From Bdellovibrionales bacterium (lineage in GTDB: Bacteria > Bdellovibrionota > Bdellovibrionia > Bdellovibrionales > UBA1609): DNA of 32,000 nt. The stretch is taken from contig OY843585.1 in the NCBI GenBank assembly GCA_963692945.1, positions 240,001 through 272,000 on the forward strand. The letters are read 5' to 3'. Shown piece by piece: positions 15,964 to 23,771 of the stretch. Numbering within the stretch: the stretch's first letter is position 1; each line of letters begins with the position of its first letter. Under the pieces are notes generated by a model, which had not been told where the DNA came from, did not search any database, and worked only from the letters and a program-made list of their open reading frames with translations. Made by a program: the position numbers and the translations under genes.

Positions 15964-17352
<1,389 letters not shown>

Positions 17353-18246: not shown

Positions 18247-19767
18247 TTAAGAGTGATTTTGTTTAAACACCGCTTTAAATTCTTCCATAACTTTTTCTAA
18301 CTCTTGTTTTGTTTCTTTTTGAAGACTCCCCTCTTTTTTTATAGAATCTAAAATGTTTGAATATCTATCTTGAATAAATTTTCTAAATTCTTTTTCAAAA
18401 TCCATGATTTTATCAACAGGAATATCGTCCACCAAACCTTCCGTTGCAAAAAAGATTATGAGAATTTGCATTTCTACAGGAACAGGAGATTCTTCTTTTT
18501 GTTTTAAAACTTCCACTAAACGAACTCCTCGCTCCAATTGCTTTTTAGAAACTTCATCTAAATCCGAAGCAAAAGCGGCAAAAGATTCTAAAGAACGAAA
18601 TTGAGCAAGATCTAATTTTAAAGTTCCTGCCACTTGTTTCATTGCTTTTATTTGTGCAGCTCCTCCAACTCTAGAAACAGATTTCCCAACATTAATGGCT
18701 GGACGAATATTTTTATAAAACAAATCGGTCTCTAAAAAAATTTGTCCGTCTGTAATAGAAATCACATTGGTTGGTATATAAGCAGAAATATCACCGGCTT
18801 GAGTTTCTACAATAGGAAGAGCTGTTAAAGAACCCCCACCTAGTTTGTCGTTCATCTTAGCGGCTCTCTCTAAAAGTCTTGAGTGAATATAAAAAATATC
18901 TCCCGGGAAAGCCTCTCGCCCCGGAGGTCTTCTAAGTAACAAAGACAACTGTCTGTAAGATTGAGCTTGTTTTGTTAAGTCATCATAAATGATTAAAGCA
19001 TGCTCCCCCTTATCTCTAAAGTACTCTGCCATTGTAACTCCAGCATAAGGTGCAAGAAATTGTAGAGCCGCAGGTTCAGAGGCCGTTGCAGAAATAACGG
19101 TGGTGTATTCCATTGCACCCACTCTTCGTAATTTTTCAACCACTTGAGTAACAGTAGATCTCTTTTGTCCAATGGCTACATAGAAACATTTCACATTTTG
19201 ATTTTTTTGATTGATGATTGTGTCAATAGCAACAGCTGTTTTTCCAGTTTGCCTGTCTCCAATAATCAGTTCCCTTTGACCTCGGCCAATAGGAATCATA
19301 GAGTCAATGGCTTTCAATCCCGTTTGAAGAGGTTCACTCACAGGTTGTCTTGCAATGATTCCTGGAGCTTTCTTTTCTAAAGGTTCAAATTGATTCGTTT
19401 GAATTTCCCCCAGACCATCCAAAGGTTGTCCCAAAGTGTCCACAACGCGACCAAGAAGGGCCTCCCCAACAGGAACTTTTACGATCTCTCCCGTTCGGCG
19501 AACTTCATCCCCTTCCTTGATATTGTGATCTTCCCCTAATAAAATAAGACTCACACTGTCTTGCTCTAAATTCAGTGCAAGAGCTTTTTCTCCTCCACTA
19601 AAAGAGACCATCTCTCCAAAAAGAACGTTTTTTAAACCAAAAACTCGGCACACTCCATCTCCAACAGAAATAACCTGTCCCCACTCTGAAACATCTAAAG
19701 ATTTTTCATAGTTACTGATTTGCTGTTTTAAAAGACCCCGAATTTCATCGGCTTGAAACGAAGACAT
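18247..19767 (-). CDS. atpA: F1 ATP synthase alpha subunit
   Basis: 506 aa. Motifs are Walker [41 protein letters not shown] and ITDGQIFLE. Confidence 0.98.
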
Positions 19768-20109
19768 GATTTAACCCCCTGAAGATTTGAACTTCTTAAG
19801 ATGACACTCTAAAGTGTCGTTAAATATATAATTCCCTACTTTAACGTAGAGACCACCCATAAGATTTGTATCTTGTCTTGATTCAAGATCAACCTTTTTT
19901 TTAAAAAAAGAACCCACTGATTTTTCTATGGCTTGAAACGAAGACATGATTTAACCCCCTGAAGATTTGAACTTCTTAAGATGACACTCTAAAGTGTCGT
20001 TAAATATATAATTCCCTACTTTAACGTAGAGACCACCCATAAGATTTGTATCTTGTCTTGATTCAAGATCAACCTTTTTTTTAAAAAAAGAACCAAGCGA
20101 CTTTTCTAT
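19750..20109. repeat. 180-bp tandem duplication spanning the atpH 3' end / atpA 5' start junction
   Basis: 19750-19914 is identical to 19930-20094 (165 bp). The remaining 15 bp of each unit (19915-19929 versus 20095-20109) differ at 4 positions. Confidence 0.95.
19771..19947 (-). other. Chimeric 58-codon ORF created by the tandem duplication (atpA codons 1-6 fused to the last 52 codons of atpH)
   Basis: My own translation is MSSFQAIEKSVGSFFKKKVDLESRQDTNLMGGLYVKVGNYIFNDTLECHLKKFKSSGG*. It inherits the same GGGGG SD-like context and ATG as atpA. It falls below the ORF-track length cut-off. Confidence 0.45.
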
Positions 20110-21011: not shown

Positions 21012-21457
21012 GTTTTTCCTACCATTTTATCAACAAGGGACTGCACAAGATGAGGCATGTCTTTTTCCAACTTTTGTTCTTCTTGATTCTTATCTTTTAA
21101 AATCTGACTTCTTTGACTCTCCAATCTCTTTCTTTGCTCCTCCTCCAAAATCAATTTGTTTTTTTGAAAGGATTTTTCAGATTCTTCTTTAATGCGACCA
21201 AACACATCTTGAAATTTCTGATTCAATGTTTGAGCTTTTTGAGAATACTTTTTTTCAAGATTGACTATCTTTTCTTCTACTTCTTTACTTTTTGAAAAAC
21301 TTCCTTTGGTCCGCTCTCTTCTTTTTTCAACATCTTGGTAATATCTTAATAGAAAAAGTTTTTTTACTACAAAATAAAGGAGTGTAATAATAATAAGCTG
21401 GTAAAAAAAAGTATGATCTAAACCAACTGTTTCTATAAAGTCTTTAAAAAGGGACAT
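21008..21457 (-). CDS. Fo ATP synthase b' (second b-type) subunit
   Basis: 149 aa. It has a single N-terminal TM helix (FFYQLIIITLLYFVV) and a charged coiled coil. It overlaps atpF by 4 nt and is the first gene of this atp cluster. Confidence 0.65.
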   Translation of the reverse strand: MSLFKDFIETVGLDHTFFYQLIIITLLYFVVKKLFLLRYYQDVEKRRERTKGSFSKSKEVEEKIVNLEKKYSQKAQTLNQKFQDVFGRIKEESEKSFQKNKLILEEEQRKRLESQRSQILKDKNQEEQKLEKDMPHLVQSLVDKMVGKT

Positions 21458-21471
21458 AGATACCTGAAAAA

Positions 21472-21500
21472 TCTATAACTTTTAAACCGAAAAGGGTCAA
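21472..21500 (-). promoter_or_regulatory. Candidate sigma70-type promoter for the atp cluster
   Basis: On the minus strand, TTGACC (21500-21495) is separated by a 17-nt spacer from TATAGA (21477-21472). Only 14 nt separate the -10 box from the ATG at 21457, so the leader would be very short. Confidence 0.35.
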
Positions 21501-21625
21501 GACTCCCCTTAGTATTTTTAACCTTATTTAAGCAACCTTATTTTTATAGTTTTGAACCTTTCTTTTTCTGTCATTTTTGGCCTTCCTGTTTCATTTTGAG
21601 AATTTTTTACTTAACTTAGTTTTTT

Positions 21626-21654
21626 TTGCAATACTTGCTTGCTGGGGCTATAAT
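21626..21654 (+). promoter_or_regulatory. Near-consensus sigma70 promoter, TTGCAA-17 nt-TATAAT
   Basis: The -35 box TTGCAA is at 21626-21631 and the perfect -10 box TATAAT is at 21649-21654, with a 17-nt spacer. The A of an ATG (21661) is the 7th nt after the -10 box, the expected transcription start. Confidence 0.55.
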
Positions 21655-21682
21655 ATTTATATGTCATTAAATAAATTTTTCA

Positions 21683-21691
21683 CCCCCCCCC
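21683..21691 (+). repeat. C9 homopolymer (candidate slipped-strand phase-variation tract)
   Basis: Nine consecutive C residues in an AT-rich intergenic region, 22 nt downstream of the ATG at 21661 and 76 nt upstream of the TTG start of the 273-codon ORF. Confidence 0.9.
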
Positions 21692-21766
21692 TCTTACTTC
21701 AATAGATGTAAGTCTTTTCTCGTTTACAAACTCTTCTCCCCTATAAACAATCCTCAAGGTTCAACT

Positions 21767-22588
21767 TTGCTCTCGGTCTTAATAGCCAGTGCAATAGGGG
21801 CAATCCTTATTGCAGGAATGGGAAATGCTTTGGTCTCTCAGTCTCAATCCCAATATAAAATTCAAAAAAAATACAAAAGAGATTGGGCTAAAATGAAAAT
21901 CTATCTAGCCATAAACAATTTGGCCACAAACCCTCCTAATCCAAGACCAAGCTCTGCTTGCAAAAAAGAAATTGAAAGAGTTTTAAAATCACAAGATTTG
22001 ATAAGACCTATTGAAGTTACAGACCCAAGCAAAAGCACAGGGGCTAACTTTGAATTAAGCCTTGATAAAGATGATGCAAAATTTACTTTAGATGAGGGAG
22101 TCACTTTAGAGCAATGTTGTGAACTTTATAAACAACCCGACCCCGAAGATGCTTCAAGAACAATAGACAGATGTGGTAGAGTGGCCTCCTTACCCGCATC
22201 TGTTACACCAGGAATAGATCATTGTCATAAAGCTTTTAGCATAAATTTTCAAAGATATGTTTATGGTTGTCGGAAAGGAAGAGGAACTGGTAGAGGAACA
22301 ATTTCAATAGGAGATGTAACACTCCCTGTTGGAACTCAACACTTACTGGTGAGGTTTCGTGCCTCTGTTAGAAAGCAGGGAGCCTGTGGACCTTTTTATG
22401 CTACTTTGCCACCCCTGACTTGCAATCCAGACGGAACAGTAACGCCAAAAACAATCACATTATCTAGACATTCAAAGAGTTATTATCGTCGCAGTAAGCC
22501 CTCTGGGTACACTGAATTTTTAACAAGCACTTCTGCTAGCGCTCACGGATACCATAGGATACAGTTTTACAAAAAACCTAAGCCCTAG
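21767..22588 (+). CDS. Orphan Cys-rich secreted or membrane-anchored protein with a type IV (pseudo)pilin-like N-terminal helix
   Basis: 273 codons from a TTG start. The N-terminus LLSVLIASAIGAILIAGMGNALVSQ is preceded in frame by ..NNPQGST, resembling a prepilin G|(F/S)TLL.VLIA segment. It has 8 Cys. I recognised no other family motif. The frame is open upstream to 21671. Confidence 0.55.
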   Translation: MLSVLIASAIGAILIAGMGNALVSQSQSQYKIQKKYKRDWAKMKIYLAINNLATNPPNPRPSSACKKEIERVLKSQDLIRPIEVTDPSKSTGANFELSLDKDDAKFTLDEGVTLEQCCELYKQPDPEDASRTIDRCGRVASLPASVTPGIDHCHKAFSINFQRYVYGCRKGRGTGRGTISIGDVTLPVGTQHLLVRFRASVRKQGACGPFYATLPPLTCNPDGTVTPKTITLSRHSKSYYRRSKPSGYTEFLTSTSASAHGYHRIQFYKKPKP

Positions 22589-22920
22589 ATTTTCTTGGAA
22601 GAGCCCTCAAAGAAAACGCCGTCTTTGATAGATAAAGAGGGGCTTGAAACCTCTCCCGAAAACCTTGCTGGTGGCTCCATAAGAACACTTTTCTTCGCTA
22701 AAACTTTCCCTGAAAACTCCCCTAACAAAATAAGATGATCCACCTCAATAGTGGCTTCTATTTTAGCCGTAGACTCTATAAGTAAAGTTCCCTGAGCTTT
22801 TATAAGACCTTTAAAGACCCCACCTATTCGCGTTGAACCTTTAAAGCGAAGCTCGCCCTCAAAAAAAGAATCTTCTCCAAGAAGTGCTTGTATGGAATCT
22901 AAATCAGAAAAGGTTTTTAT
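22585..22920 (-). CDS. Bactofilin (DUF583 / CcmA-like polymer-forming cytoskeletal protein) lacking a canonical start codon
   Basis: Absent from the ORF track. My own translation of the minus strand is (ATA)KTFSDLDSIQALLGEDSFFEGELRFKGSTRIGGVFKGLIKAQGTLLIESTAKIEATIEVDHLILLGEFSGKVLAKKSVLMEPPARFSGEVSSPSLSIKDGVFFEGSSKKI*. It shows the typical bactofilin beta-helix repeat pattern. The frame is closed by TAG at 22926-22924. The only early start candidate is ATA (22920-22918), 8 nt after a GGAG. Confidence 0.75.
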   Translation of the reverse strand: MKTFSDLDSIQALLGEDSFFEGELRFKGSTRIGGVFKGLIKAQGTLLIESTAKIEATIEVDHLILLGEFSGKVLAKKSVLMEPPARFSGEVSSPSLSIKDGVFFEGSSKKI

Positions 22921-23771
22921 TTTCTAATCTCCTGCAACTTACTTAAAAGATCTTTAAGCTCTTCTTCTGAATCAAAAGTAAAAGACAGCTTCCCTTTTTG
23001 TTGAGAGGAAAAATCAAGACGAACTTTTCTAAAAAAGATTTGTTCCAAACGAGACAAACTTTTAGAAACCCAAGGAGGAAGAAGTTTTTGTTTTTTAGAA
23101 GTTTTTGTTTTTTTATAAAGCCCCACTAAAGAGCGAACCGTCAGCCCTCCTTTTATACATTGCCTAGCTAACTCTCTTTGTTTTTTAGGATCTTTAAAAC
23201 TCAAAATCTCTTTAGCTTGACTAAAAGAAATCTGACCTTGCTCTAAAAACTCTTGCACCTTTTGATCCAACTGTAAAAGACGAAGGCTGTTTGTAAGAGA
23301 GCTTCTAGAAAGACCAAGAGTTTTAGCTAGCTCTTCTTGGCTAAGCTTTTGTTCTTGCAAAAGGGTTTTGTAAGCTCTTGCTTCCTCTAAGGGATTGAGG
23401 TCTTTTCTTTGAAGGTTTTCCAGTAAAGCCCAAAGAGGAGCTTCTTTTGGTTTCGGGGTTTTTACAATCGCTGGAATTTTATGTAGTCCAGCTTGTGTGG
23501 CCGCTCTCCATCTTCGCTCTCCAGCAATGATTTCATAAGAACCTCCTTTAGCTTGAACTAAAATAGGTTGTAGCACCCCATGGTTTTTTATAGACTGACA
23601 AAGCCCTTCAAGGTCTGCTTTTTCAAACTTTTTTCTTGGCTGACTTTGGTTTGGAAAAATCTTTTCTATGCCTAAGAGCAACACTTGCAACGATGTTTTA
23701 GAAGAAGGTCCCAGGAGAGAATCTAAGCCCCTGCCGAGTCTATCATTTTTCTTCAAAGATTGAATCTCCAT
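22917..23771 (-). CDS. parB: Chromosome partitioning protein ParB/Spo0J
   Basis: 284 aa. It has the ParB box IIAGERRWRAA, LNPLEEA, and the HTH region SQEELAKTLGLSRSSLTNSLRLL. Confidence 0.95.
   Translation of the reverse strand: MEIQSLKKNDRLGRGLDSLLGPSSKTSLQVLLLGIEKIFPNQSQPRKKFEKADLEGLCQSIKNHGVLQPILVQAKGGSYEIIAGERRWRAATQAGLHKIPAIVKTPKPKEAPLWALLENLQRKDLNPLEEARAYKTLLQEQKLSQEELAKTLGLSRSSLTNSLRLLQLDQKVQEFLEQGQISFSQAKEILSFKDPKKQRELARQCIKGGLTVRSLVGLYKKTKTSKKQKLLPPWVSKSLSRLEQIFFRKVRLDFSSQQKGKLSFTFDSEEELKDLLSKLQEIRK

Follow-up and report, generated by a model that had tools for sequence, protein, structure and literature searches.

The locus described here lies in a 32,000-nucleotide (nt) stretch of contig OY843585.1 (assembly GCA_963692945.1, positions 240,001 to 272,000) from a Bdellovibrionales bacterium; the whole of this stretch is referred to as the window. 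In core, origin-proximal DNA the window carries a plus-strand open reading frame (ORF) of 273 codons (21767-22588), preceded by a candidate promoter, an ATG at the predicted transcription start and a run of nine cytosines (C9) between that ATG and the ORF (Table 1). The reading we favour, to which we give about even chances of being right, is that the C9 tract represents a slipped-strand poly-C ON/OFF switch that sits within the cleaved leader of a pilin-like surface protein lacking the glutamate at position +5 (Glu5), and that the sequenced copy is in the OFF state.

The arrangement of the ATG, the tract and the reading frames would couple translation of the ORF to tract length. The two promoter hexamers are separated by a 17-nt spacer and score 10/12, the best site within 21300-23000 in a promoter scan, and ATG 21661 begins 7 nt past TATAAT. 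A Shine-Dalgarno motif was not found in the 15 nt upstream of this ATG and the geometry fits a predicted leaderless start. In the C9 state the ATG frame ends at TAG 21703-05, and the frame of the 273-codon ORF is open back to 21671. The hexamers, spacer, ATG, tract, stop codon and open frame all lie where the initial annotation had placed them, and the ATG-tract-frame geometry is a direct observation. Simulated tract states yield products of 308 amino acids (aa) for C8, 309 aa for C11, 14 aa for C9 and 28 aa for C10; the length first proposed for both fused forms, 308 aa, is right for C8 and one residue short for C11. ATG 21661 is the sole ATG upstream of the pilin motif and is joined to the ORF frame at C8 or C11 only. 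No ATG, GTG or TTG occurs between the C tract and the glycine preceding the predicted cleavage site (Gly-1), and the annotated start, TTG 21767, is the only one of these three codons in the ORF frame before the hydrophobic helix. According to these in silico frames, changes in the number of repeat units would switch translation of the ORF on and off. Two other candidates were rejected. ATA 21743, proposed initially as a possible start, is non-canonical, and the sequence upstream of it is CT-rich with no Shine-Dalgarno motif or other ribosome-binding site. An alternative promoter, TTTACA/AACAAT (21723-51), would start transcription about 9 nt before the TTG.

Table 1. Features of the C9 locus, in window coordinates.
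Feature	Position	Strand	Basis or remark
-35-like hexamer TTGCAA	21626-21631	+	Read directly; promoter scan
-10 hexamer TATAAT, consensus match	21649-21654	+	Read directly; promoter scan
ATG at predicted +1, proposed true start	21661-21663	+	Leaderless-type, no Shine-Dalgarno motif upstream
14-codon mini-ORF (MSLNKFFTPPPLLLQ, then stop)	21661-21705	+	ATG-frame product at C9, the state sequenced (predicted OFF)
C9 homopolymer, proposed slipped-strand switch in leader-coding region	21683-21691	+	Sequence; run count; cut-off of at least 9 for G/C
Rest of putative 33-aa leader in ORF frame (SYFNRCKSFLVYKLFSPINNPQG), last residue Gly-1 (GGT 21758-60)	21692-21760	+	
21-residue hydrophobic alpha1-N-like segment STLLSVLIASAIGAILIAGMG	21761-21823	+	N_methyl match; long helix, low confidence
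TTG, annotated start and rival constitutive start	21767-21769	+	AAGG 21756-59, 7 nt upstream
N-domain with conserved QCC and CG cysteines	21824-22207	+	Common to paralog P0002, P0007, P0008, P0009 and the L008 gene
C-terminal all-beta Cys-containing domain (CRKGRGTG...SVRKQGxCGPFY...TCxxDG)	22208-22585	+	Common to P0003-6 and P0011/12
Stop codon TAG	22586-22588	+	Read directly

The C9 tract is exceptional within the window and is probably not an assembly error. It is the sole G/C homopolymer of at least 8 nt in the 32 kb, in agreement with the rarity first attributed to it, where independent and identically distributed bases would give an expectation of 0.009, and it reaches the cut-off of at least 9 used for G/C tracts in Neisseria phasomes (PMC5953494). 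A/T runs number 164, 76, 31 and 2 at 6, 7, 8 and 9 nt, respectively, with none longer, which amounts to a roughly six-fold deficit at 9 nt. The drop from 31 to 2 between 8 and 9 nt suggests that selection in the source genome normally acts against tracts of at least 9 nt. Both 9-nt A/T runs sit within intact genes (11550-58 and 30668-76), and the one other G/C run of at least 7 nt in the window, a C7 (coding-strand G7) at 16918-16924, lies in frame in intact atpD. CCC accounts for 11% of proline codons in the window, and the C9 tract would encode Pro-Pro, using CCC, inside the leader. Among the 101 homopolymers of at least 7 nt within conserved window genes (29 of them of at least 8 nt), none is frameshifted, and a homopolymer miscount in the assembly is therefore unlikely.

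The 273-codon ORF is a real gene, as seen from its native codon usage, a paralog, remote homologs and the conservation of all of its cysteines. Its in-frame codon score is +0.25 per codon, with housekeeping genes of the window ranging from 0.14 to 0.49 and the other frames of the ORF scoring negative. The elevated G+C content pointed out in the initial annotation is real (39.8% compared to about 34% in the surroundings; atpD reaches 40.1%) but does not mark foreign DNA. The excess is found at codon position 2 (0.476 vs 0.328) while G+C at position 3 (GC3) is native (0.271 vs 0.248), which indicates an effect of amino-acid composition (Pro, Ser, Thr, Gly, Arg, Cys) and not horizontal origin; a foreign source was thus rejected on GC3 and codon usage. 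The product contains eight cysteines, as counted before, and all eight are conserved in the respective homolog alignments, as expected of an exported, disulfide-bonded protein.

The protein family is genuinely tiny. Among 5.8 billion proteins the only close matches are the annotated 273-aa product of the ORF itself (P0001) and a 201-aa paralog (P0002) encoded on the same 1.56-Mb contig outside of the 32-kb window, with 76-82% identity in the N-domain depending on the stretch aligned. Seven remote relatives emerged when 1.84 billion representatives were searched exhaustively with HMMER: four share the C-terminal domain (P0003-6) and three the N-terminal region (P0007-9). Searches with N-domain and C-domain profiles gained only P0011 and P0012. 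The tail of P0002 differs from that of the window protein and consists of His/Thr/Ala/Pro-rich repeats (HTHATPAHTHATTAHTHATPAHDHPHNHP). The annotated start of P0002 falls inside the hydrophobic helix and its 5' end may consequently be disrupted as well.

The C-terminal domain is predicted to be all-beta (predicted local distance difference test, pLDDT, 75.6), and its model has no fold match in the PDB. A PDB sequence search with the N-domain profile returned coiled-coil noise only, and the full-length AlphaFold2 (AF2) model is unusable (pLDDT 39.8). In P0011 and P0012 (ca. 197 aa) the CRKGR...VRKQxxCG.F...C beta domain is paired with another N-terminal membrane anchor and with the motif CCGGGGGG. 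Since the domain recurs there with a different N-terminus, it is a separate uncharacterised module, one with no Pfam family. Taken together, the pilin-like signal, the eight conserved cysteines and the all-beta C-domain model suggest that the product is exported.

The predicted N-terminus carries a prepilin-like signal that extends upstream of the annotated start. Pfam N_methyl (PF07963) matches residues 30-53 of the C8 product (E = 9.9e-4, 19.0 bits) in an alignment covering NPQG↓STLLSVLIASAIGAILIA, where the arrow marks the predicted cleavage site, and it matches four of the six family N-termini at E <= 10. The NCBIfam model 'prepilin peptidase-dependent protein' gives an E-value of 0.073. 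The window signal reads NNPQG↓STLLSVLIASAIGAILIAGMG, with the GGT-encoded glycine directly preceding STLLSVLIAS, and this glycine is part of the product only if translation starts upstream of TTG 21767. The predicted cleavage site is followed by 21 mainly hydrophobic residues that AF2 places in a helix spanning residues 34-86 at a pLDDT below 50. Gly-1 of the window protein aligns with Gly-1 of P0004, P0007, P0008, P0009 and the gene at locus L008, that is, with all five homologs that keep their N-terminus (KG↓SAL.S, KG↓FSL or YG↓FSI). The individual signals are MKMKMKKYILNHKG↓FSLMGVLISAG in P0004, MQINLLNKYG↓FSILGVLIAS in P0007, ...LLSNKG↓FSLTSVLVSA in the L008 gene and ...SFLSNKG↓SAL(I/V)SVIVAS in P0008 and P0009, the last two with leaders of 42 and 31 aa, respectively. 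In addition, phmmer alignments to P0007, P0008 and P0009 begin at residues 27-28 of a 305-aa translation of the window gene. Position +5 is Ser or Gly in all family homologs; Glu5 is found only in an unrelated pilin encoded next to one of them at locus L007.

Gly-1 is absolutely critical and the leader is required for processing of type IV pilins, with Glu5 being dispensable for processing (Berry and Pelicic review, PMC4471445). The annotated start TTG 21767 cuts off this invariant Gly-1. The motif is observed to extend upstream of that canonical start, and the presence of Gly-1, Ser+1 and Thr+2 upstream of it indicates that either translation enters further upstream or the motif is a relic. 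Judged by these alignments the N-terminus is a degenerate prepilin (class III) signal, and the pilin-like reading is much firmer with the homologs than from the window alone.

Repeats are also observed in the homologous loci, one of them in a frameshifted state. We compared the DNA of the loci of seven homologs, each with 31-37% G+C; tblastn searches of the window proteins against these loci gave no match (E <= 1e-5). At locus L007 homolog P0004 is immediately preceded by a canonical Glu5 type IV pilin gene (1016-1543), whose 38-aa leader contains (CT)14 + GG + (TC)6 at 1053-1095. This sequence specifies Leu-Ser repeats and is in frame with the sole ATG, and no other canonical start is present from the repeat to Gly-1. 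As far as its sequence tells, this is the same architecture as in the window, caught in the ON state and with an unambiguously hypermutable repeat. At locus L006, a 905-bp contig (JGI 3300007049), the P0007 frame ends 5 codons past a G7 tract (659-665), at 183 aa. With G6 or G9 the ORF would extend to at least 258 aa and stay open to the contig end, and the restored frame is collinear with P0009 across the junction (GGVD..CYEV..VGCED..FGFNAG..NTFxG), reaching tail-fibre-like NTFxG repeats. P0009 itself possesses tail-fibre-like repeats and a Peptidase_S74 domain. The L006 homolog has a normal AAGGAG-led mRNA, so a leaderless start is not a family trait. The 87.9 kb of loci contain three G/C runs of at least 7 nt, two of them within family genes, which make up 11% of the sequence.

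Two further loci, L004 (5120-5470) and L005 (7865-8215), share a 5' cassette of about 350 nt with roughly 97-100% identity that comprises the upstream region, the leader and the hydrophobic helix; identity is about 65% downstream of it. The genes behind the cassette differ (853 aa with Peptidase_S74 and 349 aa) and reside in different neighbourhoods. Just after the ATG, L005 carries (AG)4 with the ATG in frame and L004 carries (AG)5 with the ATG out of frame, and all cassette indels fall in short repeats (A5/A6, T3/T4 and (AG)4/5). The shared cassette suggests recombination or gene conversion among paralogs. At locus L008 (7845-8000, contig of GCA_029782575.1), homolog P0003 is annotated from an ATG located after the hydrophobic helix. 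The helix and a KG↓FSL site are found in frame upstream of this ATG without a canonical start. A candidate ATT start with AAGGA 9 nt upstream would yield (M)TINTKLLSNKG↓, which resembles MQINLLNKYG↓ of P0007.

In the favoured reading, that of a poly-C switch, ATG 21661 would be the true start and the first 33 codons would specify a long class III-type leader that carries the poly-C tract and is removed after Gly-1. Slipped-strand mispairing during replication would alter tract length. At C8 or C11 the ATG would be in frame and a 308- or 309-aa prepilin-like precursor would be made (ON), and at C9, the state sequenced, or at C10, translation would stop after 14 or 28 codons (OFF). The outcome would be heritable and reversible on/off switching of a surface protein. 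We infer in this way the transcription start, the use of ATG 21661, processing by prepilin peptidase, the surface location and the instability of the tract. The product would be an exported, disulfide-containing, type-IV-pilin-like protein that, for lack of Glu5, is closer to a minor pilin or adhesin than to a major pilin. If correct, the annotation changes: the start would lie 106 nt further upstream, and what is listed as a 273-aa protein would be a gene in the OFF state. It would also add a new, nearly orphan family with a pilin-like N-terminus and a CRKGR...VRK..CGPFY beta domain, likely a surface or host-interaction factor. Should the tract vary, phase variation driven by repeats, so far familiar mainly from a handful of human pathogens, would extend to an uncharacterised small-genome bacterium. 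The switch would moreover sit in a prepilin leader that is cleaved off, so that residues encoded by the repeat would come at no cost to the mature protein. Should it be invariant, the locus would merely be a mis-started or decaying orphan gene.

Several observations weigh against this interpretation. Tract-length variation was not observed, and indirect hints of it come only from remote homologs, through the L006 G7 frameshift and the (AG)5/(AG)4 difference of L004 and L005. No reads, sister strains or orthologs were found in the collections searched: ortholog scans of genome contigs returned only ParB matches of about 42-44% in unrelated metagenome-assembled genomes, scans of metagenome contigs and viral sequences for an orthologous locus found nothing, and exact-protein look-ups of P0001, P0002, ParB, ParA and AtpF' gave no match. 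Promoter-like sites within 21300-23000 number 4, with 3.1 +/- 1.9 expected from shuffles, so the promoter is plausible and not statistically established. The prepilin-like signal first described, Gly followed by a hydrophobic helix without Glu at +5, is upheld by N_methyl and the homologs, but at 19.0 bits the match stays below the Pfam cut-off of 21.2. Both +5 and +1 are Ser in the window product, Glu5 and Phe1 being absent. No pilus or peptidase genes occur within the 32-kb window, the lack of nearby pilus genes having been stated in the initial annotation, and a six-frame motif scan detected no second pilin-like sequence there. Textbook class III leaders are hydrophilic and 6-26 aa long (PMC4471445). 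With 33 aa and many Phe, Leu and Tyr residues, the putative leader of the C8 state exceeds this length and is more hydrophobic, although its length is normal for the family given that relatives possess leaders of 31-42 aa. Over the 23 codons from the tract to Gly-1 the score is -0.21 per codon and no frame is preferred, compared to about 0 in frame and -0.5 to -0.75 off frame for homologs' leaders, and the upstream extension scores below every one of 281 in-frame 32-codon stretches taken from genes of the window. Local alignment with shuffles detected no significant similarity to the leader of any homolog (p > 0.1), and an open stretch of 32 codons has an estimated chance probability of about 10% in window composition. 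The L004/L005 comparison is weak, because the background abounds in repeats such as (AG)4, (AG)5 and (CT)4 and because either gene could start from a TTG located 11 codons downstream. The L008 gene has no canonical start and an in-frame TAA follows an upstream ATG, and the copy at locus L009 looks degraded. Decay thus does occur in the family.

A rival account has the gene transcribed from the TTGCAA/TATAAT promoter and expressed constitutively from the annotated TTG 21767, with a 106-nt 5' untranslated region in which the mini-ORF and the C9 tract occur by chance; the protein (MLSVLIAS...) would bear an uncleaved signal-anchor and the G-S-T codons would be the relic of an ancestral prepilin leader. 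The source-genome annotation of P0001 uses this TTG, other window genes use TTG starts and AAGG precedes the codon by 7 nt, rather than the 6 nt first given, a Shine-Dalgarno-like motif comparable to those of about two-thirds of window genes. The coding signal also rises from -0.26 per codon upstream to +0.30 at 21767-21850, the leader is without homology, and P0002 and P0003 are likewise annotated from starts inside or after the helix. However, a TTG start drops Gly-1, +1 and +2 of a motif kept by all homologs that retain their N-terminus, and we estimate the chance of non-coding DNA spelling G-S-T at about 1e-3. The resulting N-terminus would lack a charged n-region, and both the repeats of the relatives and the unique C9 between a promoter-proximal ATG and an ORF one frame off would be left unexplained. 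We consider a constitutive TTG start unlikely. A little less likely still, in our view, is a fixed change without adaptive switching, either a frameshift in an eroding pseudogene or a consensus miscount of a real C8 in front of a constitutive gene. Assembly errors, and inactivating mutations in small AT-rich genomes, fall most often in homopolymers. The codons of the leader look non-coding, and the state of the L008 and L009 copies fits erosion. Against this stand the accuracy of the assembly at the 101 homopolymers of conserved genes, the intact 273-codon body with its native codon usage and conserved cysteines, and the tract itself, as nine C's are hard to keep by drift alone in 34% G+C DNA that avoids runs of 9 nt or more.

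A further alternative is RNA-level recoding, in which polymerase slippage on C9/G9 or ribosomal frameshifting on CCC-CCC-CCC would provide a fixed low expression and no heritable switch. In endosymbionts and in secretion-system genes, frameshifts are rescued by transcriptional slippage on homopolymers (PMC5009743, PMC4256274), the source genome is small (1.56-Mb contig), and the avoidance of runs of at least 9 nt fits slippage becoming appreciable at that length. The poly-A tracts of Buchnera and Blochmannia and the slippage site of Citrobacter tssM share with the window an otherwise intact gene that looks frameshifted, a homopolymer of at least 9 nt and, as a setting, a small AT-rich genome (PMC5009743, PMC4256274). 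In contrast, the window tract is poly-C, lies in the 5' leader of a putative surface-protein family and has relatives with dinucleotide repeats, whereas theirs are poly-A/T, as are most documented bacterial cases (PMC6260861, PMC5009743). The (CT)14 repeat at L007 is moreover of a DNA-level type, and no stimulatory structure or shift-site context was found, none having been examined. We regard recoding as very improbable.

The proposed poly-C switch resembles known phase-variable loci in its geometry. In Neisseria pilC1/pilC2 and opa, which encode surface or pilus-associated proteins, a homopolymeric G/C tract or an oligonucleotide repeat is located within the N-terminal signal that is later cleaved, and a change in length shifts the frame between ON and OFF leaving the mature protein unchanged; the window arrangement looks alike. 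Helicobacter pylori outer-membrane protein genes similarly contain CT repeats in the region coding for the signal peptide. The Neisseria pilC G/C tract spans 9-20 units and the window C9 reaches the same length cut-off (PMC5953494). In contrast to these loci, the window repeat would be part of a class III leader instead of a Sec class I signal, its host has 34% G+C and a 1.56-Mb genome, and the tract is known from one sequenced state. By analogy the switch mechanism would be of the same kind as that of the Neisseria pilC tracts, acting on a new and almost orphan protein family. The product itself is reminiscent of minor pilins and pseudopilins lacking Glu5 (GspK/PilX-like), in which Gly-1 is followed by about 21 hydrophobic residues and a lack of Glu5 prevents neither processing nor entry into mixed filaments (PMC4471445). 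As in modular pilins, C-terminal modules vary in the window family, P0009 being an example. It differs from known minor pilins in that it matches no solved pilin in sequence or fold and has Ser at +1, a sub-threshold N_methyl match, a 33-aa leader rich in aromatic and hydrophobic residues and no assembly genes nearby.

A broader, family-wide reading is tentative, and we rate it as somewhat unlikely. Long class III leaders might serve as disposable carriers of hypermutable repeats (poly-C, poly-G, (CT)n and (AG)n), and members of a diversified Glu5-less pilin-like family might be individually switched, with a shared, recombining 5' cassette in front of swappable C-terminal modules, either the Cys-rich beta domain or tail-fibre/S74 modules. 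This would constitute a pilin-based form of contingency or antigenic variation distinct from Neisseria pilE/pilS. What is most original here is that repeats recur in long class III leaders across the family. Relatives of the gene appear in sponge-associated and similar samples. The lineage is AT-rich, little-sampled and apparently host-associated, the last point being based on hits in a metagenome of a sponge and in an NCBI assembly that is highly fragmented (> 74,000 contigs).

The surroundings of the locus consist of conserved genes. On the minus strand the order is rnpA-yidD-yidC-jag-mnmE-mnmG-rsmG-parA-parB, followed by the plus-strand ORF; beyond it lie atpF'-F-H-A-G-D-C on the minus strand and, further on, the nuo operon. 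No tRNA genes, Rfam matches or signs of mobile elements were found in the window. A gene-free spacer of 328 bp (22589-22916) with no Rfam match and no convincing terminator separates the convergent stops of the ORF and parB, and the sole terminator-like site reported is inside the ORF (22375-87). Within the minus-strand atp genes, a tandem 180-nt direct duplication with 96% identity (19743-20102) covers the atpH 3' end and the atpA 5' end and may be either real or an assembly artefact. The duplication creates a 58-aa ORF (19771-19947) composed of the atpA start codon and upstream 25 nt, then a copy of the atpH C-terminus.

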